Below are positions 19,046-40,726 of a DNA stretch of 64,000 nt, in pieces. The stretch spans positions 1-64,000 of the forward strand of contig JAXLYB010000002.1 in NCBI GenBank assembly GCA_046351675.1. The letters run 5' to 3'. Every line of letters begins with the position of its first letter. Positions within the stretch are counted from its first letter, which is position 1. The notes under the pieces were generated by a model. The model had not been told where the DNA came from. It worked only from the letters and a program-made list of their open reading frames with translations, and ran no database searches. The position numbers and the translations under genes were made by a program. The stretch is from Myxococcaceae bacterium. Lineage in GTDB: Bacteria; Myxococcota; Myxococcia; Myxococcales; Myxococcaceae.

Positions 19046-19110
19046 GGCGAGGGGCTGCGTGGGTCGTGCAGTCACGAGACCCGTCACACCGTCGAACGGC
19101 ACTCGGCTTC

Positions 19111-19149: not shown

Positions 19150-19151
19150 AG

Positions 19152-20522
<1,371 letters not shown>

Positions 20523-20597
20523 AAAGCCCTTTCACCGCGCACCGAAAAACTCTTTCACCACACCCCTGTCGCACCCAGTGGATCAGCGGGTCTGCGC

Positions 20598-21893
20598 GTG
20601 GCCCTGCGCTTGAACAAGGCACCCGCCATGTGGTGCGTGATGTTGGTGGCGTTGGGCGCGAGCCCGCAGGCGCTCGATCTCTCCCAGGTGGCAGACGGGG
20701 CACGGCTCCCCGAGGTGGTGTGGCAGCAGGCGCCCGAGCTGCACGACGCGCGCGTGCGACTCGCGGCGGCCGAGGCTGACCGCAAGCGGGCGCTGCGGCT
20801 GCCCAACCCCGGCCTCGACGTCGGGCTCAACACGCTGCCCATCGGGCCGCTCAACCCGCCCGGTCTCGCCGACCCGTTCTTGAACGTGCCCAACGTGGCC
20901 ATCGGCCTCTCGGTGCTGCTCGAGCTGGGCAAGCGCGAGCCGCGGCAGGAAGCGACCGCCGAAGCCGCGCGCGCCGCCGCGCTCGACGCGCTCGACGTGG
21001 TGCGCCGCCGCACGCTCGACCTCGAGGAAGTCATCGGTGACGTGGCCGCCGCCCAGGTGCGCGTCGACGCCCTCACCAACCTCGCCGACGACGCGCGGCG
21101 CCTCTCCGAGCTGCAGACCGCGCGCGCCAGCAAGGGCGACACCTCGGAGCTCGACGCCGACCGCGCGCGCCTCGAGCTCGAGGGCACGCTCACCGCGTTG
21201 GGCGAAGCGCGCGAGCAGCTGCAGGCCGCGCTGCGCGGGTGCGTCGAAATCGTCGCCGTGCCCTGCGCGCCGTTCGCCGACGTGAAGCAGGCCAACGCGT
21301 GGCTCGACCGCGCGCTCGACGTGAAGTCGGGGCCGGTGGAGAAGCGCGCCGACCTCCGCTCGCTCGAGGCCGCGGTGCGCTCGGCCCGCGCCGCGCAGCG
21401 CCTCGCGCAGAACCGGTGGATTCCCGACCCCACCGTGCGCGTGGGCTACGTGCGCGACCAGTTCGTCATCTCGGGCAACCAGCAGAACTCGCTCTTCGTC
21501 GGCTTCTCGATTCCCCTGCCCTTCTTCGAGCACGGGCAAGACGACGCCGAGGCCGCGGGCGTCGCCGCGCAGAGCGCCGAGCGGGCCCGGGATGCGCTGG
21601 TCGCCGCCGCACGCTCGCAGCTCGAGACGCTGGGCGCCGAGCTGACCGCGGTCGAGGCGCGCCAGAAGCGCGTTCGCGAGCAGTCGCTGCCCCTCGCGCG
21701 CAGCGTCGTCGAGCGCCTCGAGGCCGCCGTCTCGCGCGGCGCCGCCCCGCTGCAGGAGCTCATCTTGAGCCGCCGCACGCTCGCCGAGCTCCTGCTCACC
21801 GCGGCCGAGCTCGACCGCACCGACTTCCACCTCCACGTCGCGCGCGCGCGGCTGGGGTCCTCGCTCGACGCCCTTCCGGAGTTGAATCCATGA
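20598..21893 (+). CDS. TolC/CzcC-like outer membrane efflux protein
   Basis: Signal peptide and two repeated coiled-coil/beta halves typical of the OMF family. First gene of a three-gene RND operon. Alternative start ATG 20628. Confidence 0.75.
   Translation: MALRLNKAPAMWCVMLVALGASPQALDLSQVADGARLPEVVWQQAPELHDARVRLAAAEADRKRALRLPNPGLDVGLNTLPIGPLNPPGLADPFLNVPNVAIGLSVLLELGKREPRQEATAEAARAAALDALDVVRRRTLDLEEVIGDVAAAQVRVDALTNLADDARRLSELQTARASKGDTSELDADRARLELEGTLTALGEAREQLQAALRGCVEIVAVPCAPFADVKQANAWLDRALDVKSGPVEKRADLRSLEAAVRSARAAQRLAQNRWIPDPTVRVGYVRDQFVISGNQQNSLFVGFSIPLPFFEHGQDDAEAAGVAAQSAERARDALVAAARSQLETLGAELTAVEARQKRVREQSLPLARSVVERLEAAVSRGAAPLQELILSRRTLAELLLTAAELDRTDFHLHVARARLGSSLDALPELNP
20599..20613 (+). 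promoter_or_regulatory. Weak sigma-54-like -24/-12 candidate (TGGCCCTGCGCTTGA) at the start of the czc-like operon
   Basis: GG and TTG spaced as in TGGCACG-N4-TTGC, but GC is replaced by GA at -12. It overlaps the candidate GTG start at 20598. A sigma-54 activator gene ends 76 bp upstream. Confidence 0.2.
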
Positions 21894-23005
21894 AAGCCCT
21901 CCCTTTCCTCGCGCTGGCGCTCGTCGCGCTCGGCTGCAGCAAGAAGCCGCTGGAAAAAGACCCCGCCGAGCTGATGAAGGCCGACGCGACCGGCATCACG
22001 CTCGCCGCCGACGCGCCGCAGTGGAAGTACGTCGAGCTCGCCGTCGCCGCCGCGGGGCCCACGCTCGCGCCGCTCCCGGTGCCGGGCCACGTCGACCTCG
22101 ACCCCAAGCGCACCGCCACCGTCGGCGTGCCGCTGCCCGGCCGCGTGGAGGCGGTGCAGGTGCGCCTGGGCAGCCGCGTGAAGCAGGGCGAGCGGTTGTT
22201 CTCGGTGCGCTCGGGCGCGTTCGCCGACCTCGACCGCGAGACCGAGGCCGCGCGCGCGCAGGTCGCGGTGCGCCAGCGCCTGCTCGAGCGCGCCAAGGAG
22301 CTGTTCGAGCTCAAGGCCGCCCCGCAGAAGGACGTGCTCGCCGCCGAGGCCGAGCTGAAGGAATCGGAGCTCGCGCTCAAGGCCGCCGAGTCGAAGCAGC
22401 GCTCGCTCTCGGTCGCCGCCGAGGGTGACAACCTCTTCTGGGTGCGCGCCGCCCGCGCGGGCACGGTGGTCGACCTCGATGTCTTCCCCGGCCTCGAGGT
22501 CGCGCCCGACCGCGAGAAGCCGCTGCTCAAGCTGGCCGACCTCGACGAGGTGCTGGTCATCGCCGACGTGCCCGAGAGCGACGTGGTCGACGTGAAGCTC
22601 GGCGAGGCGGTCACCATTCAGCCGCAGGGCACCGAGCCGCGCGAGGGCGTGGTCGAGTACATCAGCGAGGTCGTCGAGCCGCGCCGCCGCACCGTCGAGG
22701 TGTGGGTGCGCGCGCAGAACCTCGACCGCCACCTGCGCCCCAACGCCTTCGTCGAGGTGGTGGTGAAGCCCGGCGCGGAGAACGAGGTGATTCGCGTGCC
22801 CGACGTCGCGGTGGTGACGCAGGGCACGCGCTCGGTGGTCTTCGTGGCGACGTCACCCGGGCGGCTCGAGCCGCGGCCGGTGAAGCTCGGGCGGCGGCGC
22901 GACGGCCTCATCGAGGTGCGCGGCGGGCTCGAGGTCGGCACGCGCTTCGTGGCGCGCGGCGCGTTGCTGTTGCTCAACCAGGTCGACCTCTCGTCGGACA
23001 CCTGA
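21890..23005 (+). CDS. Efflux RND periplasmic adaptor (membrane fusion protein, CzcB/CusB-like) lipoprotein
   Basis: Lipobox LVALGCS. Coiled-coil hairpin and a beta-barrel C-terminus. Start overlaps the upstream stop. Confidence 0.8.
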   Translation: MKALPFLALALVALGCSKKPLEKDPAELMKADATGITLAADAPQWKYVELAVAAAGPTLAPLPVPGHVDLDPKRTATVGVPLPGRVEAVQVRLGSRVKQGERLFSVRSGAFADLDRETEAARAQVAVRQRLLERAKELFELKAAPQKDVLAAEAELKESELALKAAESKQRSLSVAAEGDNLFWVRAARAGTVVDLDVFPGLEVAPDREKPLLKLADLDEVLVIADVPESDVVDVKLGEAVTIQPQGTEPREGVVEYISEVVEPRRRTVEVWVRAQNLDRHLRPNAFVEVVVKPGAENEVIRVPDVAVVTQGTRSVVFVATSPGRLEPRPVKLGRRRDGLIEVRGGLEVGTRFVARGALLLLNQVDLSSDT

Positions 23006-23012
23006 AGCGGCC

Positions 23013-26000
23013 ATGTTCGAGCGCATCGTCAGCTTCAGCCTCACCAACCGCGTCGCGGTGGTGTTCTTCGCCGTGGTGGTGTTGCTGGTCGGCGCGGTCA
23101 GCTTCCGCCGCCTCACCATCGAGGCCTTCCCCGACCCGACCGACACGCAGGTCAACGTCATCACGCTCTTCGACGGCCAGCCCACCGAAGAAGTGGAGCG
23201 GCAGATTGGCTTGCCGCTCGAGCGCGCGCTCAACGGCACGCCGAACATGACGCGCCTGCGCAACCTCTCGATGTTCGGGTTGTCGATGGTGACGCTCACC
23301 TTCCGCGACGGCACCGACGGCCTGTGGGCGCGCCAGCAGGTGCTGGAACGGCTGCGCGAGGCCGAGCTGCCCGAGGGCGTGACGCCGGAGCTCGGGCCCT
23401 ACGCGACGCCCATCGGTGAGGTGTACCGCTACACGCTGCACGGCGCGCAGGGCGACCCGATGAAGCTGCGCACGCTGCAGGACTGGGTGGTGCGCCCGAT
23501 GATCATGCGCGTCAACGGCATCGCCGACGTCGTCAGCTACGGCGGCCTGCAGCGCGTCATCCAGGTCGAGCCGCGGCCGCAGTCGCTCGCGTCGCTGGGC
23601 CTGACGCTGCAAGACCTCGAGGAAGCGGTCGAGAAGGGCTCGCAGAACGCGTCGGGCGGCGTGCTCGAGCGCGGCAGCGAGCAGTTCGTCATCAGGTCCG
23701 AAGGCCTCTTCAAGTCGCTCGACGACATTCGCAACGTCGGCGTCACCGAGCGCGACGGCACGCCGCTCTTCGTGAAGGACGTGGCGACGGTGACCGAGGC
23801 GTGGGCTCCGCGCCAGGGCGTGGTCAGCGAGGGCGCCACCACCGACGCGGTCGAGGGCATCGTGCTCATGCGCCGCGGCGAGAACCCCTCGGTGGTGCTG
23901 GAGCGCCTCAAGGAACAGCTGGTGAGCATCAACGCGCGGCTCGCCGAAGACGGCGCGACGGTGAGCGCGTTCTACGACCGCCGCGAGCTCGTCGACGCGA
24001 CGCTCGAGACGGTGGGGCACAACCTCATCGAGGGCGCGGTGCTGGTGCTGCTGGTGCTCTTCGTCTTCCTGCTCGACCTGCGCGCGGCGCTCATCGTGTG
24101 CACGCTCATTCCGCTCTCGCTCGCGGTGGCCTTCATCTACCTCGACCAGCGCGGCATGTCGGCCAACCTGCTGTCGATGGGCGCGGTCGACTTCGGCGTC
24201 ATCGTCGACGGCGGCGTGGTCATCATCGAGGCGATTCTCGCGGCGCTGGTGCTCAAGGACCACAACCCGCTCAGCCAGCAGGAACGCATTCGCAAGTCGG
24301 CCTCGGCGGTGGTGCGGCCCACGGTGTTCGCGCTGCTCATCATCATCGCCGCCTACATCCCCATCTTCATGTTGGAGCGCGTCGAGGGCCGCATCTTCTC
24401 GCCGATGGCCAACACCGTCGCCGCGGCGCTGGTGGGCGCGCTGCTCTTCTCGGTCACGCTCGTGCCGGCGCTCGCGTCGTTCGCGTACAGCAAGCCGATG
24501 CACGACCACAAAGACTCGCCGGTGCTCGTGCTCGCGCAGCGGCTCTACCTGCCGACGCTGAAAGCCGCGCTCAAGCGGCCGTGGCTGGTGCTCGGCGCGG
24601 CCACGGTGCTGCTCATCACCACCGGCGTGGTCGGCTCGCGGCTGGGCAGCGAGTTCCTGCCCGAGCTGAACGAGGGCGCGCTGTACATGACCTTCACCCT
24701 GCCCTCGAACGTCTCGCTGTCGGAAGGCCGCCGCCTCGTGCCGCGGCTCAACCAGCTCATCGCCGCGCAGCCGCAGGTCGAGGCGGTGTTGAGCCAGCTC
24801 GGCCGCCCCGAAGACGGCACCGACGCCACGCTGACCAACAACCTCGAGTTCTTCGTGAAGCTGAAGCCCGCCGCCGACTGGCCCAAAGACACGCCCGAGC
24901 TGGGCGACGTCATCCACGCGCTCCACGACGCCATCGACGAGGTGCCGGGCCTCGAGGTGAACTTCAGCCAGCCCATTCGCGACAACGTCAACGAGAGCAT
25001 CTCGGGCCAGTTCGGGCAGATCGCCGTGAAGCTCTACGGCGACGACCTGGTGAAGCTGCAGGCGCAGGCCGAGAAGGTGAAGCTCGTCATCTCCACGGTG
25101 CCCGGCGTCGCCGACCTGGGCATCGTGAAGTCGGGCGAGGTGCCGCAGCTGCAGGTCGAGCCCGACCGCGTGGCGCTCGCGCGCTACGGCATGACGCTCG
25201 GCGAGTTCCAGCACGTGTTCCAGACCTCGGTCGGCGGCCGGCCGGTCGACGAGTTCTGGGAAGGCGAGCGCCGCTTCGACGTGGTGCTGCGCCTGCCGCG
25301 CACCGAGCGCGACGACGTGGAGAAGCTCAAGAAGCTGCGCGTCGCCGTCGAGGGCGGCGTCACCGTGCCGATGGAGGCGCTGGCGAAGATCTCCACCGGC
25401 ACCGGCCGCGCGAGCATCAACCGCGAGAACGGGCGCCGCTACATCGGCATTCGCATGAACGTGCGCGACCGCGACCTGGGCAGCTTCGTCGACGAGGCCC
25501 GCGGCCGCGTGGACAAGGAAGCGCCGCTGCAGGCCGGCCAGCGCATCGAGTGGGGCGGCGAGTTCGAGAACAAGGAACGCGCCATGAACCGGCTCGCGCA
25601 GGTGGTGCCGGTCGCGCTCTTCCTCACCCTGCTGTTGCTCTTCAACGCGTTCGGCAACTTCCCCCGCGCGGTGCTCACGTTGCTGAACGTGCCCTTCGCG
25701 CTCACGGGCGGCGTGTTCGGCCTGTGGCTGGCCGACATGCCCATCTCGGTCGCCGCGGCGGTCGGCTTCATCGCGCTCATCGGGCAGGCCGCGCTCAACG
25801 GCGTGCTGGTCAGCTCGGCCATCGCCGAGAAGTTGAGGGAAGGCATGGTGCTCGAGCACGCCATCGTCGAGGGCGCCCGCGAGCGCCTGCGGCCGGTGTT
25901 GATGACCGCCGCGCTCGCCGCGCTGGGCCTGGTGCCCGCCGCGATGAGCCGCGCCATGGGCTCGGAGACGCAGCGCCCGCTCGCGGTGGTCATCGTGTTC

Positions 26001-26087
26001 GGCACCCTGTCGGCCTGCGCGCTGACGCTGGTGCTCTTGCCGGTGATGTACCGGGAATACGCGAGGCGCTTCGAGAAGCGCGCCTGA
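23013..26087 (+). CDS. Heavy-metal efflux RND permease (CzcA/CusA family)
   Basis: 1024 aa with 12 TM segments and two large periplasmic loops. N-terminus MFERIVSFSLTNRVAVVFFAVVVLLVGAVSF is typical of the HME-RND family. Confidence 0.9.
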   Translation: MFERIVSFSLTNRVAVVFFAVVVLLVGAVSFRRLTIEAFPDPTDTQVNVITLFDGQPTEEVERQIGLPLERALNGTPNMTRLRNLSMFGLSMVTLTFRDGTDGLWARQQVLERLREAELPEGVTPELGPYATPIGEVYRYTLHGAQGDPMKLRTLQDWVVRPMIMRVNGIADVVSYGGLQRVIQVEPRPQSLASLGLTLQDLEEAVEKGSQNASGGVLERGSEQFVIRSEGLFKSLDDIRNVGVTERDGTPLFVKDVATVTEAWAPRQGVVSEGATTDAVEGIVLMRRGENPSVVLERLKEQLVSINARLAEDGATVSAFYDRRELVDATLETVGHNLIEGAVLVLLVLFVFLLDLRAALIVCTLIPLSLAVAFIYLDQRGMSANLLSMGAVDFGVIVDGGVVIIEAILAALVLKDHNPLSQQERIRKSASAVVRPTVFALLIIIAAYIPIFMLERVEGRIFSPMANTVAAALVGALLFSVTLVPALASFAYSKPMHDHKDSPVLVLAQRLYLPTLKAALKRPWLVLGAATVLLITTGVVGSRLGSEFLPELNEGALYMTFTLPSNVSLSEGRRLVPRLNQLIAAQPQVEAVLSQLGRPEDGTDATLTNNLEFFVKLKPAADWPKDTPELGDVIHALHDAIDEVPGLEVNFSQPIRDNVNESISGQFGQIAVKLYGDDLVKLQAQAEKVKLVISTVPGVADLGIVKSGEVPQLQVEPDRVALARYGMTLGEFQHVFQTSVGGRPVDEFWEGERRFDVVLRLPRTERDDVEKLKKLRVAVEGGVTVPMEALAKISTGTGRASINRENGRRYIGIRMNVRDRDLGSFVDEARGRVDKEAPLQAGQRIEWGGEFENKERAMNRLAQVVPVALFLTLLLLFNAFGNFPRAVLTLLNVPFALTGGVFGLWLADMPISVAAAVGFIALIGQAALNGVLVSSAIAEKLREGMVLEHAIVEGARERLRPVLMTAALAALGLVPAAMSRAMGSETQRPLAVVIVFGTLSACALTLVLLPVMYREYARRFEKRA

Positions 26088-26208: not shown

Positions 26209-29200
26209 ATGGGCAGTGAAGGGGAACAGCTGGGCCGCTACACCCTGGTGCGCAAGCTCGCGACCGGCGGCATGGCCGAGGTGTTTCTCGCGAAGGCCCA
26301 GGGACCCGGCGGCTTCGAGAAGTCGCTGGTCATCAAGCGCATCCTCCCGCACCTCGCGAAGAACCCCGAGTTCGTCTCGATGTTCCTCAACGAGGCGCGC
26401 ATCGCCGCGCAGTTCGCGCACCCGGCCGTGGTGCAGATCTTCGACTTCGGCGAGATGGCCGGCACCTACTTCCTCGCGATGGAGTTCGTCGACGGCCCCA
26501 ACCTCCGCACCATTCTGCGGGCCATTCCCGACCGCCGGCTGCCGCTCGCCGTCGGCGCGCGCGTCATCGAGGAAGCGTGCGAGGGCCTCGCGTACGTGCA
26601 CGAGTTCGCCGACCCCGCCGGCAAGCCGATGGGGCTCATCCACTTCGACGTGAGCACCGACAACCTGCTCATCGCGAAGAACGGCGCGGTGAAGGTGGTC
26701 GACTTCGGCGTCGCGGTGGCGGGCAACCAGAGCAACGCCACGCAGGGGCAGGTGAAGGGCAAGATTGCGTACATGCCTCCCGAGCAGATCATCGGGGAGG
26801 CCGACCTGCGCGCCGACGTCTACGCGCTGGGCGTCATTCTCTACGAGCTGGCCGCCGGCACGCGCCCGTACGAGACCAAGCCCGACCAGCAGCTGCTGGC
26901 CGACATCATCCAAACCGACCCGGTGCCGCTGCAGCAGCGCCGCCCCGACGTGCCCGGCGAGTACGCGGCCATCGTGCAGAAGGCGATGGCGAAGAACCTC
27001 CAGGCGCGGTTCCAGAACTGCCGCGAGCTCGCCGCCGCCCTCGAGGAGTTCGTCACCAACAGTGGCCAGCGCGTCGGCACCCGGCAGCTCTCGGCCCTCG
27101 CCGCGCACACCGAGGAAGTGCCGGCGGCGCCGAGCAAGCCCGCCACCTCGCCCACGCCCGCCACCGCCACGCCGTACAAGGCCGTCTCGCCCGCGCCCAT
27201 CTCTCCGCCGCGCGGCACGCCGGTCGCCGGCCCGTCGAGCGACCCCTTCGCCTCGTTCGGCGCGCCGCTGCCCCGCGCGTCGTCGGCCCCCGTTCCGCCG
27301 CCGCCCTCGAGCGCGCCCACCGCCCCCTCCGTCGCGCCGGTGACGCTCGAAGTCGGGCTGCCGAAGCAGAAGCAGTTCGACGCGAAGGCCAACGACCTCT
27401 TCGACCAGTTCTTCAGCGACCTGCAGGAAACCGACGGAGGGAAGGCCGCGCCCGCTCCCGTCGCCGCCCCGCCCGCGCCTGCCCCGGTCGCGCCGCCCGA
27501 GCCGGAGCCCGCGCCGGCCGAGGAAGAGACCGGCATGAAGGTGACCGTCGGCTCGACCGGCGCGCCGATGTCGATCGAGGCCTTCAACGCCGCGCGCGCG
27601 AAGTACTTCAGCAGCTCGCCCAGCAACCCCGGCACGCCGCGCCCGGGCCAGGGCATTCCCATGAGCGGCCTGACGCCCGGGCCGGGCAAGGGCCTCACCG
27701 GGCTGACGCCGTGGCCGTCGGCCGTCGCGGCGGCGCCCGCCCCGGGCCTCACGCCGGGCCCCGCCGCGAAGGGCATGTTCGCCGCGGAGCCGGCCCACCA
27801 GGTGCCGACGCACACCCCGGGCACCGCGTCGAAGGGCATGTTCGCCGCGCCGCCGCCCAGCCAGGTGCCGACGCACACCCCGGGCACCGCCGCGCGCGGC
27901 ATGTTCGCGGCGCCGCCGCCCAGCCAGGTGCCGACGCACACGCCCGGCACCGCGGCCCGCGGCATGTTCGGCCCGCCCGGCGCGCCCCCCGCGCCGCCGC
28001 AGCCCTCGCGCAGCGGCACCGCGCCCGCCTTCGTGCCGCCGCCCGCGGCGCCGACGCCGCAGAACGCGCCGCCCGAGGTGCGCGCGCAGGTGCTGATGGC
28101 CGAGGCCACGCACATGCGGCTCTACGAGGCCGGGGCGCCATTGGCCTCCCGCGCGGAGCTCGAGGCGGTGCGCACCGAGCTCGAGCGCGACGAGGGCGTG
28201 AACCTCTTCGCGCGCTTCCCGATGCACGCCGGGCGGCTGCTCAAGGTGGTCGACGAGGGCCCGGTGCTCGAGCGCGTGGTCGGCGCCATCGACGGCCTGC
28301 TGATGGCCGAGGCGTGGGGCGCGCTGGCGACGCTGCTCGAGCGGCTGCGCGCGTCGGCGAGCATCGACCCGCTGCACCAGCGCGTGGCCGACATCGCGCT
28401 CGCCCAGTTCGCCACTGCCGACCAGGCCCGCCGCATCGCCTACCGCCTGCGCGAGGCGCCGCCCACCGACGCCGAGGGCCTCGGGCGCCTGATTCCCTTC
28501 TTCGGCCACGCCTTCGCCGTGACGTGGCTCGAGCTCTTCGAGACGCTCGACCTGCCGGCCAGCCGCGACGCGGTCCTCCCCGGGCTCGCCGGCCTCGCCG
28601 CGCTGAACGCGCCGCCCTTCATCGAGCGGCTGCAGCCCAAGCGCCCGCGCCGCCTCACCGAGCTGACCTACTGCATCGAGAAGGGCCGCGTGCCCGAGCG
28701 CCAGCGCGTGGTGCGCGAGCTGATGGCCCGGCTCGACCCGCTCCGCAAACGCGAGGTGCTCGCCGGCCTCGCGCGCGCCGCCAGCGAAGACGCCTTCCGC
28801 TTCGTCAGCCTCGCGCTCAACGACGACGACGAGGCGACGCGCGTGCACGCCATGCAGTTGCTGGGCAAGCACTTCCCCGACCGGGTGCTGGCGACGCTGC
28901 AGCCCTTCGTCGAGGCGCAGACCGCGGCCACCCGGTCCGACGCCGAGCGCCGCGCCGCGTGGGCCGCCATCGGGCATTCGAGCTCGCCCGCCGCGTTCGA
29001 CCTGGTGTCCGCCGAGCTCTCGCTGCGCGCCGGGTTGCTCAACCGCGGCAAGGCCGACCTCCGCAAGGTCGAGGTGCTCGAGGCGCTCGCGGTGATGAAG
29101 ACCCCGCAGGCCGTCGAGCTGCTCAAGCGCACCGCGCAAGACGGCTCGCAGGGCCCGCTCGTCACCTCGGCGGCCGACGGCCACGTGCGCTCGGCGGCGC

Positions 29201-30405
29201 TGCAGGAACAGACGGTCTCGCACATCGGAGAGGTGCGCCGGTGGGACCGCAACCCGCGCACCTGGCGCGACGTGCTGCTCGACCTCGCGTCGCTCGCCGC
29301 CGCCTCGCGCCTCGTCGAGCTCGACAGCGCGGCCTTCGACGTCGCCTTCACGCGCGTGGCGAAGTCGCTCGCGGCCCTCCTCCCCGCCGGCAGCCAGGGC
29401 GCGGTGACCTGCGGCGCCGAGCTGACGGTGAACGACCAGTCGGTGGCCGAGGGCGCCGACGCCGCGGTGGTGCGCGCGCTCAAGGCGTTCCAGTCGCGGC
29501 AGGTGCTGAGCTTCACCTTCACCCGGCAGCCGCCGCGCGCCGAGCTCGAGCACCTCGTGCGGTGGCTCGCCGCCGGCCCCAACGCCGAGGGCATCGAGAC
29601 CTCTTCCATCGTGCTGCAGTCGGCGACGGTGTCGCGCTCGCGGCCGGCGCCCGACCCGGTGCGCGTCGCGGCGATGGCCGACTTCTCGCGCGAGGCGATG
29701 ATTCGCTACGTCGACCTCGTGCTGGCGTGGCGCGCGTACTTGAACGAGCGCCGCGCCAACCCGAAGGCCGAGCCGCCCGACACGCGCACCTTCTTCACCG
29801 AGCTGGCGGTGGCCGCGGAGTCGCGCGCGGTGCGCTTCCTCGGGCTCTCGCCGCGCGAGCGCAACCGCGACTCCGAGCTGCTGCACGCGGCGAACACCAT
29901 GATGCTGGCGGTGCTCTTCGGCGCCGAGCTGGGCCTCGTCGAGCAGCAGCTCATCGACCTCGCGTCGGTCGCGTTCTTCACCGACGTCGGCAACTTCGAC
30001 CTGGGCGACGACCTCTTCCAGCGCGCCGGGCGCCTCACCGAGGCCGACCAGCAGGCGGTGGTGGCCGCGCGGAAGGCCTCGGCGCGCTACCCGTTCTTCA
30101 AGCTGGGCGACAAGGCGCAGGCCGCCTCGTGGGCCGCGGTCGTCGCCGAGCAGGACCTCGACTGGGGCGCGAAGGACCGCCCGGGCGGCACCGGCCCGCG
30201 CGCCGCGGTCGGCCTGGTGGGCAGCCTCGTCGCGCTCGCCCGCGCGTTCGAGATGCTCACCACCGCGACCGGCACGCGCGAGGCGATGACGCGCGACCAG
30301 GTCATCGAGGTGCTCTCGACGCGCGTGCCGCACCGCTTCCGCCCCGAGCTGCTGGGGCTGTTCGTGCGCTTCCTCCAGCGGCTGTCGCTGCGCCCCACGC
30401 GCTGA
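26209..30405 (+). CDS. Multidomain Ser/Thr protein kinase: atypical kinase domain, Pro-rich repeat linker and a large C-terminal helical-repeat domain
   Basis: Hanks kinase subdomains: GxGxxAEV, VIKRI, DFG, APE-like. The catalytic loop is HFDVSTDN rather than HRDLKPEN. A 63-bp unit repeated three times encodes GMFAAPPPSQVPTHTPGTAAR. The C-terminal roughly 800 aa form a helical region. Confidence 0.85.
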   Translation: MGSEGEQLGRYTLVRKLATGGMAEVFLAKAQGPGGFEKSLVIKRILPHLAKNPEFVSMFLNEARIAAQFAHPAVVQIFDFGEMAGTYFLAMEFVDGPNLRTILRAIPDRRLPLAVGARVIEEACEGLAYVHEFADPAGKPMGLIHFDVSTDNLLIAKNGAVKVVDFGVAVAGNQSNATQGQVKGKIAYMPPEQIIGEADLRADVYALGVILYELAAGTRPYETKPDQQLLADIIQTDPVPLQQRRPDVPGEYAAIVQKAMAKNLQARFQNCRELAAALEEFVTNSGQRVGTRQLSALAAHTEEVPAAPSKPATSPTPATATPYKAVSPAPISPPRGTPVAGPSSDPFASFGAPLPRASSAPVPPPPSSAPTAPSVAPVTLEVGLPKQKQFDAKANDLFDQFFSDLQETDGGKAAPAPVAAPPAPAPVAPPEPEPAPAEEETGMKVTVGSTGAPMSIEAFNAARAKYFSSSPSNPGTPRPGQGIPMSGLTPGPGKGLTGLTPWPSAVAAAPAPGLTPGPAAKGMFAAEPAHQVPTHTPGTASKGMFAAPPPSQVPTHTPGTAARGMFAAPPPSQVPTHTPGTAARGMFGPPGAPPAPPQPSRSGTAPAFVPPPAAPTPQNAPPEVRAQVLMAEATHMRLYEAGAPLASRAELEAVRTELERDEGVNLFARFPMHAGRLLKVVDEGPVLERVVGAIDGLLMAEAWGALATLLERLRASASIDPLHQRVADIALAQFATADQARRIAYRLREAPPTDAEGLGRLIPFFGHAFAVTWLELFETLDLPASRDAVLPGLAGLAALNAPPFIERLQPKRPRRLTELTYCIEKGRVPERQRVVRELMARLDPLRKREVLAGLARAASEDAFRFVSLALNDDDEATRVHAMQLLGKHFPDRVLATLQPFVEAQTAATRSDAERRAAWAAIGHSSSPAAFDLVSAELSLRAGLLNRGKADLRKVEVLEALAVMKTPQAVELLKRTAQDGSQGPLVTSAADGHVRSAALQEQTVSHIGEVRRWDRNPRTWRDVLLDLASLAAASRLVELDSAAFDVAFTRVAKSLAALLPAGSQGAVTCGAELTVNDQSVAEGADAAVVRALKAFQSRQVLSFTFTRQPPRAELEHLVRWLAAGPNAEGIETSSIVLQSATVSRSRPAPDPVRVAAMADFSREAMIRYVDLVLAWRAYLNERRANPKAEPPDTRTFFTELAVAAESRAVRFLGLSPRERNRDSELLHAANTMMLAVLFGAELGLVEQQLIDLASVAFFTDVGNFDLGDDLFQRAGRLTEADQQAVVAARKASARYPFFKLGDKAQAASWAAVVAEQDLDWGAKDRPGGTGPRAAVGLVGSLVALARAFEMLTTATGTREAMTRDQVIEVLSTRVPHRFRPELLGLFVRFLQRLSLRPTR
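27769..27975 (+). repeat. 63-bp coding tandem repeat, about 3.3 copies
   Basis: aagggcatgttcgccgcgccgccgcccagccaggtgccgacgcacaccccgggcaccgc... repeated. It encodes GMFAAPPPSQVPTHTPGTAAR in the kinase linker. Confidence 0.8.
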
Positions 30406-30464
30406 GCTCGGCCGGGCAGGTGGGGAAGTCGCGCCCCGGCCCCCGTTGACTAAGCTTTTTCGCC

Positions 30465-32099
30465 GTGACCGCAGTGGGCGAGACGGTCGAACGCGCGATC
30501 GTCTTCGAAGACGCGTACGGCTACCGGCGAGTGAGCGCAGCGCGCTGCGTCGACATCTGGCTGTCGGCCTTCGACGAGTCGCTGCTGCAGGTCGACCTGG
30601 GGCTGCGCGAGAGCGGCCCGGTGCTCTACGTCATCCTGCGCTTCCGCGAAGACCGCTTCACCGACGGCACGCACGCCGCGGTGGTGAACGCCGGTGAGCA
30701 CGCGGGCGGCGCGGTGGTGGCGCTCAGCGACCTCGAGTACCGCGAGCGCGGCCACTTCATGTCGCGCTTCGCGGAGTGCGGCACCCAGCGGCTGGGGCTG
30801 CAGCCCGACGCGGTGCTCAAGGCGCTCGACGAGGTCTTCACCGTGGTGCCCGAGCGGCGCGCCGAGGTGCGCACGCCCATCGACGCGCCCGCGGTGGTGA
30901 AGGTCGAGGGCAAGCGCGTCTCGGGAGCGGTGGCCAACCTGTCGGCCGGGGGCGCGCTGATTCGCACGCTGACGCCGCCGCCCGTGCTGCACGCCAAGGT
31001 CGAGGTCGAGGTGAAGCTGCCCAGCGGCAACGTCACCGCGCCGGCCACGGTGGTGAACGTCGGCGACCAGGGCGTGTCGGTGCAGTTCTCCCCGGGGCCG
31101 CTGCCCGAGGTGAAGGAAAAGCTCGCCGCGCTGCCCACCACGCCGCTCGACACGAAGCTCACGGCGGCCGCGTTGACCGCCCCTCCCACGGGCGGCGCGA
31201 GCACCGAGCGCGTCGGGCCCTACGAGGTGCTCTCGCTGCTCGGCTCGGGGGGCACCAGCGCGGTGCACTTCGCGCGCGCGGTCGAAGGGCCGCTGGCCGG
31301 GCAGCAGGTGGCGCTCAAGCGGCTGCACAAGCGCCGGTCGCAAGACGCCGCGGCGGTGCGCGACTTCGAGCTCGAGGGCCGCACGCTGGCGCTCATCAAG
31401 AACGCCAACGTGGTGAAGGTGCTCGACGCGGGCGTGTACGACGACCAGCACTGCCTGGTGATGGAGCTGGTCGAGGGCCGCGACCTGGGCCAGGTGTTGC
31501 GCCGCGCGCGCGCGAAGAAGCACCTCTTGCCCATGGGGCTGGCGTGCTGGGCGACGCGCGTGCTGCTCGAGGCGCTGAGCGCGGTGCATTCCGCGAAGGA
31601 CGCGAGCGGCGCGGCGCTGCAGCTGGTGCACGGCGACGTCTCGCCGCACAACCTCTTCATGTCGAAGACGGGCGTCATCAAGCTCGGTGACTTCGGGCTG
31701 ACGCGCGGCGCGGGACAGGTGACGCGCTCGGTGAACGAGGGCCGCCCCACGTACCTCGGCCCCGAGGGGCTCGACGGCCAGGTGACGCAGTCGCTCGACC
31801 TGTGGGCCGCGGGCGTCACGCTCTACGAGCTGTTGACCAACGAGCAGCCCTTCAAGGCCAACTCGCTCGACGAGCTGGTGGAAGCGATTCGCACGCAGGA
31901 CCCGGTCGACCTGCGCGAGCGGCGCGACGAGTGCTCGGGCCCGCTGGAGGCCATCGTGCGCCGCGCGCTCGAGAAGGACCCTGCGCAGCGCTACGCGACG
32001 GCGAAGGACTTCGCGTCGTCGCTGAGTCCGTTCGTCGACGCGGTGCGCACGCTGCGCGAGGTGCCGAAGCTGCTCGAGCAGCTCTTCGGCAACACCTGA
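30465..32099 (+). CDS. PilZ domain - Ser/Thr kinase fusion protein (atypical catalytic loop)
   Basis: PilZ c-di-GMP motifs: RAEVR and NLSAGG. Kinase motifs: LGSGGTSAVHFA, VALKRL, DFG. The catalytic loop is HGDVSPHN. GTG start. Tandem with the upstream kinase. Confidence 0.8.
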   Translation: MTAVGETVERAIVFEDAYGYRRVSAARCVDIWLSAFDESLLQVDLGLRESGPVLYVILRFREDRFTDGTHAAVVNAGEHAGGAVVALSDLEYRERGHFMSRFAECGTQRLGLQPDAVLKALDEVFTVVPERRAEVRTPIDAPAVVKVEGKRVSGAVANLSAGGALIRTLTPPPVLHAKVEVEVKLPSGNVTAPATVVNVGDQGVSVQFSPGPLPEVKEKLAALPTTPLDTKLTAAALTAPPTGGASTERVGPYEVLSLLGSGGTSAVHFARAVEGPLAGQQVALKRLHKRRSQDAAAVRDFELEGRTLALIKNANVVKVLDAGVYDDQHCLVMELVEGRDLGQVLRRARAKKHLLPMGLACWATRVLLEALSAVHSAKDASGAALQLVHGDVSPHNLFMSKTGVIKLGDFGLTRGAGQVTRSVNEGRPTYLGPEGLDGQVTQSLDLWAAGVTLYELLTNEQPFKANSLDELVEAIRTQDPVDLRERRDECSGPLEAIVRRALEKDPAQRYATAKDFASSLSPFVDAVRTLREVPKLLEQLFGNT

Positions 32100-32210
32100 G
32101 CGCGTCGGTTCGCCCCGCTGTGCAAACTGGTCAGGCTGATCTGACGTGCGTGCGATGTGCGCGCACAGGCGACAGCTGATCAGACGCGCAGAACTCCTGT
32201 GCTGGACAGG

Positions 32211-32225
32211 GGGCACGAATCTTGG
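32211..32225 (+). promoter_or_regulatory. Sigma-54-like -24/-12 candidate (GGGCACGAATCTTGG)
   Basis: Good match to TGGCACG-N4-TTGC except that GC is replaced by GG at -12. It lies 19-33 bp upstream of the lipoprotein ATG at 32244, so the leader would be very short. Confidence 0.2.
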
Positions 32226-32243
32226 ACACTGCGGCCACTCCCC

Positions 32244-35243
32244 ATGCGCCTCCTCCGCCCCTCTCATGCCCTTGGTGTGTGCTTCCTCGCTTTCACCCTC
32301 TCGAGCTGCGCCTGCGACACCGTCGGCGTCGGCAATGACGAAGACGGCGGCGCGGGTGGTGGCGCGGCGACGGGCGGTGGCGCGACGGGCGGTGGCGCGA
32401 CGGGCGGCGGCGCGACGGGTGGCGGCTCAGCGACGGGTGGCGGCTCGGCGACGGGCGGCGGCTCGGCGACCGGTGGCGGCTCAGCGACGGGCGGCGGCTC
32501 GGCGACCGGAGGCGGTGACCCGATGGGTGGTGGCTCCGCGACAGGCGGTGGCTCCGCGACGGGTGGTGGCTCCGCGACGGGCGGTGGCTCCGCGACGGGC
32601 GGCGGCTCCGCGACGGGCGGTGGCTCCGCGACGGGCGGTGGCTCCGCGACGGGCGGTGGCTCCGCGACGGGCGGCGGCTCCGCGACGGGCGGTGGCTCCG
32701 CGACGGGCGGCGGCTCGGCGACCGGCGGCGGCGGCGCGTGCACTTCGGACCCTGGCTGCACCGCGGCCAACCAGCAGGCGTGTGACCCGAACGGTACCAA
32801 CGCGCACGGCACCTGCATCGACGTGGGCGGCGGCTGCTTGAAGGTGATGTCACTGATGGCGTGCGCCATCGGCCAGACGTGCTCGGGTGGAACCTGTGCG
32901 TGTCCCGCCGTCGCGGCGATGCCGGTCAGCGGCGGCGGCTGCATGATGCCCGGGGTGACGGCGTGCGAGACCGGCAACACGCAGATGCTGCTCACCTGCG
33001 CGCCGGTGGGGAGCTGCAACGTCTGGCAGCAGACCCGCGCCTGTCCGACGATGAGCCTGGTGTGCGGCACGACCGGCGGCCCCGCGGCGTGCCAGTGCCC
33101 GGCGAACACCGGCACCGCGTTCTACGCCGACCCCGTCAACGGCTCGCCCGGCGGCGCTTCGCCGTACCCCACCGGCGTCAACACGCCCGCGCAGTGCCGC
33201 TTCAAGACGCTGACCGCGGCGTTGACGGCGGCGTCGGCCGCGGCGGCGACGTCGAGCGCGTCGGCGGTGGCGACCGGCTTCACCGGTGCCCAGCCCATCA
33301 CCTTCTCGGCCGAGACCTTCCCGCTGGTGGTCAACCCGCGCGTGACGCTCACCACCAGTGACACCACGCCGACCCCGGCGAACTACGTCATCTCGTTCAA
33401 CGACACCACGCCCAACCGCAGCGCCATCGTGCTGCACGAGAACGGCACGGTGAACGGCGTGACGGTGCAGAACGCCAACGCGCCGGCGAGCTCGACCGGC
33501 ATCTCCACGGCGTGCCCGGCGGCGGGCGGCACGAGCTCCGTCACCAACACGGTGGTCATCGGACAGACTGCCGGCCCCAACCTCGCGGCGGGCCTCGCGC
33601 TGACGTCGAACTGCGGCGTGAGCGTCGACAACTCCACCTTCCGCGCGGCGACCAACGGCGTGCGGCTCGCGGCGACGGCCAACGCCACGCCGCTCACCCT
33701 CGCCAACAGCCTCGTCGAGCAGAGCAGCGGAGTCGGCGTGCTGGTGACGCGCGGCGCCGCGACGGTGACCAACACCCGCGTGCGCAACTGCGGGGGCCAC
33801 GGCATCAGCTTCCAGTCGGGCAACGCGGTGACCGGGAGTCTCTCGGTCACGGGCGGCCTCGTGGAAAGCAACCAGCAGAACGGCATCGACGTCACGGCCA
33901 TCAACGGCAACACGGTCAGCCTCAGCGGCACCGAGGTGCGCACCAACGGCGCGACGAGCGGCGGGCTGATGAACTTCAGCGGCATCAACGTGAGCGGCAA
34001 CCTCACGGTGCCCGTCGCCAACGTGAACGTGCACGAGAATGCGCTCCACGGGATGTCGGTGTCGGCGTTCGCTACCGTGAACGTCACCGGCACCTCGCAC
34101 TTCGACGGCAACGCGACGGCCTCGACGAACGGCGTCGGCATCGTGGTGAGCGCCACCGCGCTGCTCAACGTCGCGCCCGGCACCACGGTGAACGGCAACC
34201 AGGGCGTGGGGCTGCGCGTCGGAGGTGGAGCGCAAGCGACCGTGACTGGCATCACCATCGCCCGCAACGGTACGGGCTTCATGGCGGCCGCCGGGCGCGG
34301 CGCGCTCGAGGTCGAGAACGGCACCGCGACGGTGATCAGCAACGGCACCGGGCTGAGCGCCGTGCAGAACAACGCGTGGCACGGCATCCGCGTGTTCGGC
34401 GGCACGCTCACCCTGCAGGGCGGGTCGGGGCAGCCGGTGGACGTCTCGGCCAACGGGCTCAACGGCCTGCTCAGCGACGCGGCGACCGTCACCTCGACGT
34501 TCGCTCAGTTCCGCAACAACGGGACGCACGGCGTGGAGCTGAACAACCAGGGCCCGCTGGGCGTGGGCCAGCCGATGAGCTTCACCTCGAACACCTTCGC
34601 GACGAACGTGGGCGCTGGCCTGCACGTCAACGCGTCGGGTGGTCAGGCCGTGACGGGCGCCAACTCGCTCGTGGTGAGCGGCAACACCTTCAGCGACAAC
34701 CTCCACGGGCTCAACGTCGCCGCCAGCACCGGTGACGTGCGCGCCCTGTTCCAGAACAACACCGTGACCGGGTCGCGCGACATCGGCGTGATCGTCAACG
34801 GCACGGCGACCTCGGTGCACGCGTGGTCGGGCAACACCATCACCAAGAACCTCGCGACCACCCTGTTCTCGGGCCAGGGCGTCGGCGGCATGGTGTTCCG
34901 CGGAACGCCGCCAGCCAACTTCGCCTTCACCGGCAACCGCGTGTACAACAACGCGTTCAACCAGTTGGTCGCCGTCGGCGGCGGTGCTCCCGCGACGTGG
35001 CTCTTCAACGGCACCAGCGCCGCGTCGTGCAACCCGAACACCGCCAACAGCTTCACCTGCTACGGCACCACCCCGGGGTCGGTGGGCGTGATGGCGCTCG
35101 GCGCGAGCGTCACCGTGCAGGCGCATGGCAACGCCTGGCAGAACGCCGCGCCCGCCGCGGGCGTGGACTATCTCGGCGCTGCTGGCGGCACGGTCACCAC
35201 GCCGGTGGCGGTGTGCGCGGCGAGCACGCTCGTGTGCATGTGA
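32244..35243 (+). CDS. Large lipoprotein with GGSATG hexapeptide repeat linker, Cys-rich module and parallel beta-helix (pectate-lyase-like) repeats
   Basis: Lipobox (FTLSSC). About 21 copies of an 18-bp repeat. Repetitive N/G/T/V-rich ~22-residue periodicity typical of right-handed beta-helix. Antisense ORFs 32264..33115 and 32850..35126 are rejected. Confidence 0.75.
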   Translation: MRLLRPSHALGVCFLAFTLSSCACDTVGVGNDEDGGAGGGAATGGGATGGGATGGGATGGGSATGGGSATGGGSATGGGSATGGGSATGGGDPMGGGSATGGGSATGGGSATGGGSATGGGSATGGGSATGGGSATGGGSATGGGSATGGGSATGGGSATGGGGACTSDPGCTAANQQACDPNGTNAHGTCIDVGGGCLKVMSLMACAIGQTCSGGTCACPAVAAMPVSGGGCMMPGVTACETGNTQMLLTCAPVGSCNVWQQTRACPTMSLVCGTTGGPAACQCPANTGTAFYADPVNGSPGGASPYPTGVNTPAQCRFKTLTAALTAASAAAATSSASAVATGFTGAQPITFSAETFPLVVNPRVTLTTSDTTPTPANYVISFNDTTPNRSAIVLHENGTVNGVTVQNANAPASSTGISTACPAAGGTSSVTNTVVIGQTAGPNLAAGLALTSNCGVSVDNSTFRAATNGVRLAATANATPLTLANSLVEQSSGVGVLVTRGAATVTNTRVRNCGGHGISFQSGNAVTGSLSVTGGLVESNQQNGIDVTAINGNTVSLSGTEVRTNGATSGGLMNFSGINVSGNLTVPVANVNVHENALHGMSVSAFATVNVTGTSHFDGNATASTNGVGIVVSATALLNVAPGTTVNGNQGVGLRVGGGAQATVTGITIARNGTGFMAAAGRGALEVENGTATVISNGTGLSAVQNNAWHGIRVFGGTLTLQGGSGQPVDVSANGLNGLLSDAATVTSTFAQFRNNGTHGVELNNQGPLGVGQPMSFTSNTFATNVGAGLHVNASGGQAVTGANSLVVSGNTFSDNLHGLNVAASTGDVRALFQNNTVTGSRDIGVIVNGTATSVHAWSGNTITKNLATTLFSGQGVGGMVFRGTPPANFAFTGNRVYNNAFNQLVAVGGGAPATWLFNGTSAASCNPNTANSFTCYGTTPGSVGVMALGASVTVQAHGNAWQNAAPAAGVDYLGAAGGTVTTPVAVCAASTLVCM
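32355..32735 (+). repeat. 18-bp coding tandem repeat (ggctccgcgacgggcggt, GGSATG), about 21 copies
   Basis: Direct reading of the sequence. Near-perfect units with occasional ggctcg/ggctca variants. Confidence 0.85.
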
Positions 35244-38974: not shown

Positions 38975-40726
38975 TCAGAGTCCTTCGTCGGGCCCCTCGG
39001 TCTTCTTCTTTTCTTCCTTCTTCTCAGGCGACTTCGGCGGCCCCGCATGCGGCGGCCCGAAGTCGACATTCACCACGTCATCAAGCTGCACGAACCGCCG
39101 CGCCAACTCCGGCACCAGCGCATCATCCAATTCGAGCAACACCTTCATCGTCGCCCCCGCCCGCTGCTTGAGCGACTCATCCTTCAGCTCGACCGCCACC
39201 GCATACAGCGCGACCGCCACCTCGGGATCGAAGGGGTTCACCGCGTTCGCATCGAGGTAGCTCTTCTTCGCCGCGTCCCACTTCTTCGCGCGCAGATAGA
39301 TGCGCCCCAAATGCACGCTCGACGGCGCCGACCCGGGGTGCACCTGCAAGCTCGCCTCGAGCACCTTCGCCGCCTGGTCGAACTCCTTCAGCTCGAGCAG
39401 CGCGAGCGCGTACTTGTTCGACACCGACTCGTACTTGTCGCCCACCTGCTTCCACGCGCGCGCATACGCCTCGACCGCGGCCTTCGCGTGCTTGTGCTCG
39501 CGGAACAATTCCCCCAGGTGCGCGTTGCGGCGCGCGTCGACCTCGGTCACCTCGACGAAGTCACCGAAGCTGACCTCGCGCTCCTTCTTCTTCTTCGGCC
39601 CCGCCTCGGTGAGCTCCTTCTTCTCGAACGAGCTGGGCGGAATCAGGTCCTTCGGGAACGGCTGCTTCTTCAAGAACGCCATCCAGCTCGACTCGAACTG
39701 GGGCCACTTGCGCTTCATCACCTGCTCGACCGCCGCCTTGTCGCTCACGCCCTTCGCCATCGCGTCCAACAACCGCTCGAGCGCCTGCGGGCCACCTTCC
39801 TGGTCGACGAGCTTGAGCGCGAAGTACACCTCGGCGAACGCGGTTGCGGCGTCTTCGGCCGTCGGCAACAACGCCATCGAGGGGTGCATCTTCTCGAAGG
39901 GCACGAGCGTGTTCTTCTTCACGCGCATGCCGAGCAGCGCGAGCGTCGGCGGCGTCATCGCCCCGCCCGCCGGCCCACGCCACCGCGACTCGAGGTACTT
40001 CGCGAGGCCCTCGTGCATCCAGATGGGCACGGTGTTGCGGCTCTTGCGGCTGACGACGAGGTGCACGTACTCGTGCGCCATCGTGTCGAGCCAGTCGTAG
40101 CCCATCACCAGCGCGCGCGGCGTCGTCACCATCAGCTTGTTGAACTTGCAGATGGCGATGGTGCCGGTGGTCTTGATGGCTTCCTTGGTGAGCGTCGACA
40201 CCTTCGCGAGCTCAGCGGCGGACGTGACGAGCTCGACGCGCACCTTGCCGGGCGGCGCGTAGCCGAGGTCCTGCACCAGCGCGGCCCGCTGCGCCTCGAG
40301 CGCGTCGAGCGCCCACGGCACGAGCACCGCGTCGCGCCCCTTCGGGTAGCGAATGATGAAGTGCTCGCTCTCGGCCTTCTCGTAGCCGTTGACGATGGCG
40401 CCGGTGTCCTTCGCGAGGCGCACCCAGCTGCCGGGCTTGTCGGTGAGGCCGGCCTTGGTGAGCAGCGCCAGCGCGTCGTCGTAGCGGCCCTCTTCGAAGG
40501 CGATGCGGCCCTGGTAGTAGGCGAGCGGCTCGACGTCGGCGGGGGCGATCTTCTCGAGCTCAGCCAGCTCGCTCTTCGCGGCCTCGAGGTCCCAGTCGTC
40601 GAGGTACTGGTCGAGGTTCTGGATGCGGGCGCGCGCTTCGCCTTTGACCGACGAGAGATCAGGCTCCTCCTGCGCGAACGCCGGGAGGCTGATCAACGCG
40701 CTGATCAACACCAACCGGCACGTCAC
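38975..40726 (-). CDS. Secreted TPR-repeat protein with HExxH zincin-like motif
   Basis: GTG start with GGAG Shine-Dalgarno sequence. Signal peptide VTCRLVLISALISLPAFA. HEYVH ... MHEGLAKYLE. Multiple TPR-like helices. Lys/Glu-rich C-terminal tail. Translationally coupled (GTGA) to the upstream gene. Confidence 0.65.
   Translation of the reverse strand: MTCRLVLISALISLPAFAQEEPDLSSVKGEARARIQNLDQYLDDWDLEAAKSELAELEKIAPADVEPLAYYQGRIAFEEGRYDDALALLTKAGLTDKPGSWVRLAKDTGAIVNGYEKAESEHFIIRYPKGRDAVLVPWALDALEAQRAALVQDLGYAPPGKVRVELVTSAAELAKVSTLTKEAIKTTGTIAICKFNKLMVTTPRALVMGYDWLDTMAHEYVHLVVSRKSRNTVPIWMHEGLAKYLESRWRGPAGGAMTPPTLALLGMRVKKNTLVPFEKMHPSMALLPTAEDAATAFAEVYFALKLVDQEGGPQALERLLDAMAKGVSDKAAVEQVMKRKWPQFESSWMAFLKKQPFPKDLIPPSSFEKKELTEAGPKKKKEREVSFGDFVEVTEVDARRNAHLGELFREHKHAKAAVEAYARAWKQVGDKYESVSNKYALALLELKEFDQAAKVLEASLQVHPGSAPSSVHLGRIYLRAKKWDAAKKSYLDANAVNPFDPEVAVALYAVAVELKDESLKQRAGATMKVLLELDDALVPELARRFVQLDDVVNVDFGPPHAGPPKSPEKKEEKKKTEGPDEGL

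Follow-up and report, generated by a model that had tools for sequence, protein, structure and literature searches.

Can a bacterial Ser/Thr kinase that has lost the lysine of its catalytic loop still be a working enzyme, and could such an enzyme be controlled by cyclic di-GMP (c-di-GMP)? Two adjacent genes of an uncultured Myxococcaceae bacterium (GenBank assembly GCA_046351675.1, contig JAXLYB010000002.1) raise this question. We analyzed positions 1 to 64,000 of the contig, a stretch of 64,000 nucleotides with a G+C content of ~71% that we call the window. Gene A (26209..30405, + strand) is an open reading frame (ORF) of 1398 aa that encodes a kinase domain, a Pro-rich linker, HEAT repeats, a small α/β domain, and a degenerate HD-GYP domain. 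Gene B (30465..32099, +), separated from gene A by 59 nt, is an ORF of 544 aa that encodes an ACT-like domain, a PilZ domain, and a non-RD kinase domain. Both ORFs are as given in a preliminary description of this DNA, and their starts (ATG at 26209, protein beginning MGSEGEQLGRY, for A; GTG at 30465, protein beginning MTAVGETVERAIVFE, for B) are backed by the N-termini of orthologues. That description regarded A and B as a paralogous pair of non-canonical kinases, or pseudokinase scaffolds, under second-messenger control.

We arrived at a different picture, to which we assign a probability of roughly 0.55: B would be a kinase whose output is set by c-di-GMP and whose catalytic center is a variant one, A would be a second kinase of this type carried on a scaffold of HEAT repeats and a dead HD-GYP domain, and the two would belong to a conserved module.

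A and B retain the Hanks kinase core but not the catalytic-loop lysine

Both proteins contain a Hanks-type kinase domain, at residues 11-268 of A (26239..27012, +; Pfam Pkinase 106 bits; PknB 134 bits, E 2.6e-38) and at residues 253-512 of B (31221..32000, +; Pfam Pkinase 121.6 bits; PknB E 2.2e-24), and the best matches of both in the PDB were PknB, StkP, and PknA. In HMMER alignments to Mycobacterium tuberculosis PknB, the catalytic loops HFDVSTDN of A (residues 145-152; 26641..26664, +) and HGDVSPHN of B (residues 389-396; 31629..31652, +) fell exactly on HRDVKPAN, which rules out that the loop Lys was merely misaligned. Both loops are non-RD and carry a Ser where the loop Lys is expected, so that neither has the RD Arg and Lys of the canonical HRDxKxxN loop; this is how the preliminary description had read them by eye. 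It had also called the other two kinases of the window canonical, and their loops are indeed HRDLKPEN and HRDLKPSN.

The remainder of the active site is intact. The VIK43 segment of A and the LK285 segment of B align on the β3 Lys of PknB, and a DFG motif is present at residues 165-167 of A and 409-411 of B. Residues K43 (β3), E62 (αC), D147, N152, and D165 were invariant in three aligned orthologues of A, and K285, E304, H389, D391, N396, and the DFG motif were invariant in a 25-sequence alignment of the B family. A and B thus have the Pfam profile, β3 Lys, αC Glu, catalytic Asp, Asn, and DFG of a Hanks-type Ser/Thr kinase, and the three residues whose loss marks a pseudokinase (the VAIK Lys, the HRD Asp, and the DFG Asp), which had been noted as kept, are invariant in the orthologue sets of both families. 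Furthermore, the kinase domain is the best-conserved part of A, with 71-84% identity to orthologues versus 54-62% for the C-terminus; over their full length, A orthologues are 55-64% identical.

The missing loop lysine covaries with a basic residue in the P+1 loop

In PknB, the P+1 segment reads GTAQYLSPE. HMMER aligned the "gk" of A (G184-K185 in GKIAYMPPE; 26758..26763, +) and the "gr" of B (G426-R427 in GRPTYLGPE; 31740..31745, +) to this GT, so that the Thr of PknB pairs with K185 of A and R427 of B. The K185 position is invariant in the A family, and the R427 position is Arg or Lys in every B-family and sister kinase. We then tallied the two positions over all retrieved kinases, which are related sequences, so that the counts do not represent independent events. 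A non-Lys loop was accompanied by Lys or Arg at the GT Thr position in 123 of 124 kinases of one set and in all 116 of a second (239/240 together), and a Lys loop by Thr at that position in 10 of 11. Since the loop change goes together with a Thr-to-Lys/Arg change at the GT position, the basic residue seems, from these alignments, to have been relocated in A and B rather than lost.

The sole kinase found without the loop Lys yet with the P+1 Thr was P0099 (HRDVTPGN with GTPNYMAPE). Its close relatives P0103 and P0109, which also have a Thr in the loop, combine HRDVTPSN with GKFAYLAPE. These three proteins are candidate intermediates of the swap between loop Lys and P+1 Thr.

The lysine-less loop is a broad trait, and A and B are not close paralogues

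The same loop type extends well beyond the two genes. Among the 120 best homologues of B, ~57 were full-length PilZ-kinases with the architecture of B and the loop consensus H[GCA]DVSPHN, and one MAG (metagenome-assembled genome) protein from a Myxococcaceae bacterium was 100% identical to B. A sister set within the 120 consisted of stand-alone kinases of ~300 aa with HCDVSPSN, which are the closest relatives of the B kinase; more distant large kinases had HRDVSPHN, HRDISPSN, or HRDVTPSN, and HRDxKxxN loops were confined to the most distant homologues. Orthologues of A carry HCDVSTDN, and the basal family member P0136 carries HRDVSSDN. The closest relatives of the A kinase, with 50-58% identity, are HRD[IV]SxDN kinases of cultured Archangium, Pyxidicoccus, Myxococcus, Corallococcus, Hyalangium, Cystobacter, Stigmatella, and Melittangium; the Ser loop was present in 116/116 readable relatives from cultured myxobacteria, and the RD Arg was kept in 114. 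By these tallies, the Lys-to-Ser/Thr loop is a broad trait of the Myxococcota and not a peculiarity that A and B share as a pair, as had been supposed. Because the sister kinases of A and the basal P0136 remain RD, the A and B families each seem to have lost the RD Arg on their own.

A paralogous origin of the pair also fared poorly. In BLASTP the two kinase domains were 30.7% identical (137 bits), barely above the scores of the canonical window kinase K4 against A and B (111 and 107 bits), and a rough neighbor-joining tree placed them in separate subclades. Given ~31% identity and membership in different subfamilies, a recent tandem duplication is ruled out.

B carries a canonical PilZ domain behind an ACT-like domain

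The PilZ domain of B, whose assignment N-terminal to the kinase was borne out by the profile search, spans residues 130-221 (30852..31127, +; Pfam PF07238, 51.1 bits versus a cutoff of 22.5, E 1.8e-13). Both c-di-GMP-binding motifs are intact: RRAEVR at residues 131-136 (30855-30872, +), which provides the RxxxR before the barrel, and NLSAGG at residues 158-163 (30936-30953, +), which matches [D/N]xSxxG. In 55 B orthologues that span 23-68% identity to the window protein within its first 250 residues, R131, R132, and R136 were invariant, and S160, G162, and G163 were at least 90% conserved. An AlphaFold2 (AF2) model of residues 1-250, built with 55 sequences, had a pLDDT of 91.8 and a pTM of 0.84. 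It contains the six-stranded β-barrel with a C-terminal helix expected of a PilZ domain, and its closest structural matches were c-di-GMP-bound PilZ domains.

The PilZ domain is preceded by a ferredoxin/ACT-like domain at residues 1-125 (30465..30839, +) that has no Pfam family and that we found in just 14 clusters among 1.84 billion representatives; it is lineage-restricted. The order of elements in B is accessory domain, RxxxR linker, barrel, and kinase. At the level of sequence and predicted fold, the proposal that B is a c-di-GMP-gated kinase is well supported.

The C-terminal part of A is a helical-repeat scaffold with a dead HD-GYP domain

In A, the kinase domain is followed by a Pro/Ala-rich low-complexity linker (27076..28065, +) that is evident from the sequence and that includes a 63-bp × 3.6 tandem repeat (27750-27977, +; Tandem Repeats Finder score 307-308, 87-88% matches). 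The repeat encodes GMFAAPPPSQVPTHTPGTAAR units and is absent from the orthologues in loci L001 and L002, where the alignment shows a gap. An AF2 model of the C-terminal part (pLDDT 80.7) shows a long helical repeat that is followed by a small α/β domain and then by a C-terminal domain that is again helical. The helical-repeat region (28150..29385, +) is all-helical over model residues ~29-440, Foldseek related it to karyopherin and alphaRep HEAT proteins, and Pfam HEAT_2 was detected in 7 of 18 A-family members (best E 1.2e-8).

The last domain (29890..30348, +) is HD-GYP-like. Of the 18 family members, 16 had a match to Pfam HD_5 (PF13487; best E 2.6e-8); with 17 bits, the window protein stayed under the cutoff of 27.2. 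A PDB profile search with the whole-family alignment was swamped by the kinase domain, and we therefore used the C-terminal 205 residues alone. This profile matched the HD-GYP structures 5z7c (2.7e-8), 4r8z (3e-8), and 4mcw (1.3e-7), namely V-cGAP3, PA4781, and PmGH, as well as 9rbz (DvhD; 6.6e-4). Foldseek placed the C-terminal domain on 9rbz with probability 1.0 and TMt 0.60, rank 2 overall; this was the only HD-GYP structure among the Foldseek matches listed for A.

The residues required for HD-GYP catalysis are gone. FF(T)DVGN stands for HDIGK, the HD having become TD in the window and (T/S/A)D across the family; AEQDLDWG stands for HHERWDG, so that HH has become EQ; the GYP is lost, and an ALARA segment occupies the place where the last metal-binding Asp should be. 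Because HD, HH, GYP, and the last metal-binding Asp are all replaced or gone, the domain is, judged by its motifs, catalytically dead. P0136 (1305 aa), the most divergent member of the A family, retains a single His of HH (VVVEHGLDWG) and has an SRRSFR segment that matches the c-di-GMP contacts of DvhD; by its sequence it resembles an intermediate stage of this domain's decay. The C-terminal 779 residues of A define a tiny family of 17 proteins among 5.8 billion clusters, and all members are fused to a kinase, bar four shorter records (622-820 aa; three on contigs <3 kb) without a kinase match.

Related loci place a phosphoesterase-like gene between A and B

We scanned one genome per GTDB species and recovered 11 loci, which were mapped by tblastn and gene calls; the 13 loci that were fetched include two pairs that are one place fetched twice. 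Identity of the B-family proteins to the window protein ranged from 39 to 69% among the synteny loci. In 11 of the 13 fetched loci, a gene for a metallophosphoesterase-like protein of 336-373 aa was divergent from B (L001:8826-9836(-), L002:8849-9958(-), and equivalents in L004-L009 and L011-L014). The protein is 66-76% identical among loci. It carries the motifs GD, GDHFDWG, GNHD, HAG, and GH and scored 20.2 bits against Pfam Metallophos, under the cutoff of 21.5; a PDB sequence search found no match, even with a 10-sequence profile. Its identity rests on these GD/GDxxDxG/GNHD/HAG/GH motifs, and we call it phosphoesterase-like accordingly.

In six distinct loci that also contain B, the phosphoesterase-like gene has A immediately upstream, and the window was the only locus in which A directly abuts B. 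From this synteny, the ancestral arrangement looks like a module of kinase A, an opposite-strand metallophosphoesterase-like gene, and the PilZ-kinase B. On the same synteny, the window genome is a deletion variant in which the phosphoesterase-like gene has been lost from the locus.

Other signaling genes also occur beside B orthologues: another kinase and a PAS hybrid histidine kinase (L001:11606-13060 and 13074-14915), a stand-alone PilZ protein and a KaiC-like ATPase in L015 (L015:41-379), and a cyclic-nucleotide-monophosphate-binding GGDEF protein (L016:129-1112). None of them is kept across loci. The last of these genes indicates that c-di-GMP synthesis exists in the clade.

A model for a messenger-controlled kinase pair

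In the model that we favor, B would act in the cytoplasm as a Ser/Thr kinase, with c-di-GMP setting its output. RRxxxR of the linker and NxSxxG of the barrel would hold the dinucleotide on the canonical PilZ barrel, and its binding would change how the ACT-like/PilZ module packs against the kinase domain. As the B kinase is non-RD, its control would come from this module and not from activation-loop phosphorylation. The charge that steers the γ-phosphate would be supplied from the neighboring strand, by the P+1 Arg in B and the P+1 Lys in A. This is suggested by Thr201 of protein kinase A (PKA), which we take to be the counterpart of the GT Thr and which hydrogen-bonds the loop Lys (Lys168) and the catalytic Asp (Asp166). 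A would be a second such "Ser-loop/GK" kinase, tethered by its Pro-rich linker to the HEAT scaffold and the dead HD-GYP domain, which probably have a docking or regulatory function and may also act as a residual dinucleotide sensor. Both would be parts of a module conserved among a small set of uncultured Myxococcaceae-like MAGs. What we observed are the domains, motifs, conservation, covariation, and synteny; we infer binding of c-di-GMP, phosphotransfer, a structural role for the relocated Lys/Arg, and any functional coupling of A and B.

Several observations weigh against this model. The covariation of loop and P+1 residues may stem from just a few evolutionary events, and the idea of a relocated charge combines sequence covariation with established structural knowledge of PKA. 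All 11 loci come from MAGs that carry the labels Archangium sp., Myxococcaceae, Myxococcales, or Myxococcota. A tblastn search of the window found no trace of the phosphoesterase-like gene, and no genes for GGDEF, EAL, or active HD-GYP proteins were found in the window. Within A's HD-GYP-like domain, the DvhD contacts R650 and Y652 correspond to Thr and Thr, and only the equivalent of R653 is kept, as an invariant Arg; nucleotide binding by A is thus doubtful, and we place it between unlikely and possible. Finally, no A gene lies within 10 kb of B in 4 of the 11 informative loci (L008/L015, L009, L013, and L010/L016).

This last point, together with the distant kinship of the two kinase domains and the finding that B has the phosphoesterase-like gene as a neighbor in more cases than it has A, could mean that A and B are functionally unrelated, that their adjacency is a by-product of the deletion of the intervening gene, and that the real unit is B plus the phosphoesterase-like gene. 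We consider this unlikely: A adjoins the phosphoesterase/B pair in the six distinct loci and the window across a wide range of identity, and in its very small family every full-length member with an inspectable locus is beside B. A and B might also be pseudokinase scaffolds that bind ATP without phosphotransfer, in which case the PilZ and HD-GYP-like domains would make them nucleotide-controlled adaptors. Neither protein has the loop Lys or the RD Arg, D151 of A is acidic where tyrosine kinases put a compensating Arg, the first Gly of the A G-loop is Ala, and the HEAT repeats of A are large and scaffold-like, as this explanation would have it. It does not account for the invariance of the β3 Lys, αC Glu, catalytic Asp, Mg-binding Asn, and DFG in the aligned orthologues, nor for how tightly the P+1 Lys/Arg covaries with a missing loop Lys. 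The conserved presence of a phosphoesterase-like partner beside B in the relatives also counts against it, and the abundance of the Ser-loop/GK type in cultured myxobacteria argues for a functional enzyme class. The scaffold explanation, which the preliminary description had raised, is accordingly the weaker one, and we judge it improbable. Because of the invariant core residues, the covariation, and the strong conservation of the A kinase domain, we favor active kinases with a rearranged center; A and B are probably, on comparative evidence, working, messenger-controlled kinases rather than dead ones.

Even if B is an active kinase, its PilZ domain could act without c-di-GMP as a protein-interaction or dimerization domain, as has been proposed for several PilZ proteins of M. 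xanthus: PlpA carries the motifs yet is reported not to bind, and Pkn1 is functional although its PilZ domain lacks them (PMC8316039, PMC8844925). The absence of a c-di-GMP turnover gene from the window would fit. An invariant RRxxxR and the near-complete conservation of S160, G162, and G163 are, however, hard to explain without ligand binding, and the closest structures are c-di-GMP-bound, and we consider this explanation unlikely. There is also the matter of which residue is phosphorylated. A Thr in the P+1 GT marks kinases that are specific for Ser/Thr, and the loop Lys is missing from tyrosine kinases, too; with both hallmarks changed in A and B, the Ser loop and P+1 Lys could alter phospho-acceptor specificity, for example, to Tyr or dual specificity, rather than merely preserve Ser/Thr chemistry. 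Neither protein resembles tyrosine kinases in its loops (HRDLAARN/PxxWxAPE), their PK_Tyr_Ser-Thr scores lie below their Pkinase scores, and there is no experimental hint of such a change, which makes this the least likely of the explanations considered.

Genomic surroundings of the two genes

Immediately upstream of A, positions 19038-26087 (+) encode a receiver-domain σ54 activator, an outer-membrane efflux protein (OEP), and an AcrB-type resistance-nodulation-division (RND) pump. In locus L002, an ACR_tran gene likewise lies upstream of the A orthologue, but with only 32% identity. Downstream of B, gene 32157-35243 (+) encodes a 1028-aa secreted protein with a right-handed β-helix (Pfam Beta_helix); an 18-bp × 21.6 tandem repeat at 32353-32732 encodes (SATGGG)n near its N-terminus, and a canonical kinase gene follows.

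The class III nucleotidyl cyclase noted nearby was confirmed at 43957-45126 (+; Guanylate_cyc 69 bits). It is in frame with a long spurious ORF (41479-45126) that overlaps an opposite-strand gene for a 1054-aa DUF4175 protein (40723-43887). An extracytoplasmic function (ECF) σ factor gene (45790-46335, +; Sigma70_ECF 172.8 bits) shares 4 nt with the start of kinase gene 46332-48782 (+), whose product has the HRDLKPSN loop and C-terminal tetratricopeptide repeats; the two look like a translationally coupled ECF-σ/Ser-Thr-kinase pair. On the minus strand, a 524-aa antisense ORF (60727-62301) contains a GGEEF motif at ~61989, which was rejected as a high-G+C artifact, the real gene being 60865-62112 (+).

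Implications

No signaling systems of myxobacteria are more expanded than c-di-GMP and Hanks-type Ser/Thr phosphorylation. We know of no Hanks-type kinase shown to be controlled by c-di-GMP, and if B is indeed gated in this way, it would to our knowledge be the first case in which c-di-GMP is wired directly to Ser/Thr phosphorylation. Pkn1, the single PilZ-kinase fusion known so far, lacks the binding motifs in its PilZ domain; a canonical PilZ domain fused to a kinase offers a clean test case for such control. The near-perfect swap of loop Lys and P+1 Thr is the most useful new point and can be tested in cultured myxobacteria. It covers many kinases of cultured, genetically tractable species, which would then be scored as active enzymes instead of pseudokinases. 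The swap would also provide a further natural case of catalytic-residue relocation, after the well-known one of the WNK kinases.

Beyond what the preliminary description had covered, our analysis adds, for A, the HEAT region and the dead HD-GYP domain; for B, the ACT-like domain; and a conserved phosphoesterase-like partner gene that is absent from the window. More ambitiously, myxobacteria might possess a large undescribed class of Hanks kinases in which the steering Lys has moved to the P+1 loop (HxD[VI]S/TxxN with G[K/R]), with B gated by c-di-GMP through its PilZ domain and with A and a dedicated metallophosphatase completing a kinase-phosphatase-kinase module. We offer this wider proposal tentatively, as possible but short of probable.

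Comparison with known systems

A literature search found nothing that links PilZ domains or c-di-GMP to the regulation of a Hanks-type kinase. Nor did it find anything relevant on these Lys-less catalytic-loop strings, and a 2010 classification paper was silent on catalytic loops. RIO and Bud32 kinases have catalytic loops without Lys, HxDLSxxN or HGDLTxxN. We ruled out that A and B belong to them (RIO1 15.6 bits versus a cutoff of 22; Bud32 models far under their cutoffs); unlike RIO and Bud32 kinases, A and B have a DFG motif, an APE-type P+1 loop (xPE), and a full C-lobe. They share the full Hanks fold with PknB-like kinases, whereas PknB combines HRDVKPAN with GT, and A and B have Ser in the loop, Lys or Arg for the Thr, and no RD Arg. 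The "Pkn6"-annotated HRD[IV]SPDN kinases of cultured myxobacteria share the Ser loop and GK motif of A.

For the C-terminal domain of A, DvhD of Desulfovibrio vulgaris offers a precedent: its HD-GYP domain is inactive, yet it is a c-di-GMP receptor with a Kd of ~99 nM (PMC13090378), so a receptor role for a dead HD-GYP domain would not be new. The HD and HH metal ligands are replaced in both proteins (by SQ and MN in DvhD); A differs in lacking the GYP region and in having a kinase and HEAT repeats as partners, where DvhD has dCache and PAS domains. A is thus a new combination built from known kinds of domain.

B is likewise a new architectural variant of known domain kinds, an ACT-like domain with a canonical PilZ domain and a non-RD kinase. 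It resembles YcgR-type receptors in the succession of accessory domain, RxxxR linker, and barrel, and departs from YcgR, MotI, and PlzA-type proteins in that the accessory domain is ACT/ferredoxin-like and not PilZN and that the output is a fused kinase rather than a motor or DNA binding. The fusion of PilZ to a Ser/Thr kinase as such is already known from Pkn1 of M. xanthus (MXAN_1467), which is important for sporulation and whose C-terminal PilZ domain lacks c-di-GMP-binding motifs, binding not having been shown (PMC8316039, PMC8844925). The source-named members listed among the 120 B homologues included none from cultured Myxococcus, and the full-length ones came from MAGs or unnamed metagenome sources. 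Like Pkn1, which we compared by description only, B joins a Hanks-type kinase and a PilZ domain on one cytoplasmic myxobacterial polypeptide. B does not follow the Pkn1-type order of an N-terminal kinase and a C-terminal motif-less PilZ domain; instead, its PilZ domain is N-terminal to the kinase, its RRxxxR and NxSxxG motifs are intact, and an ACT-like domain comes first.

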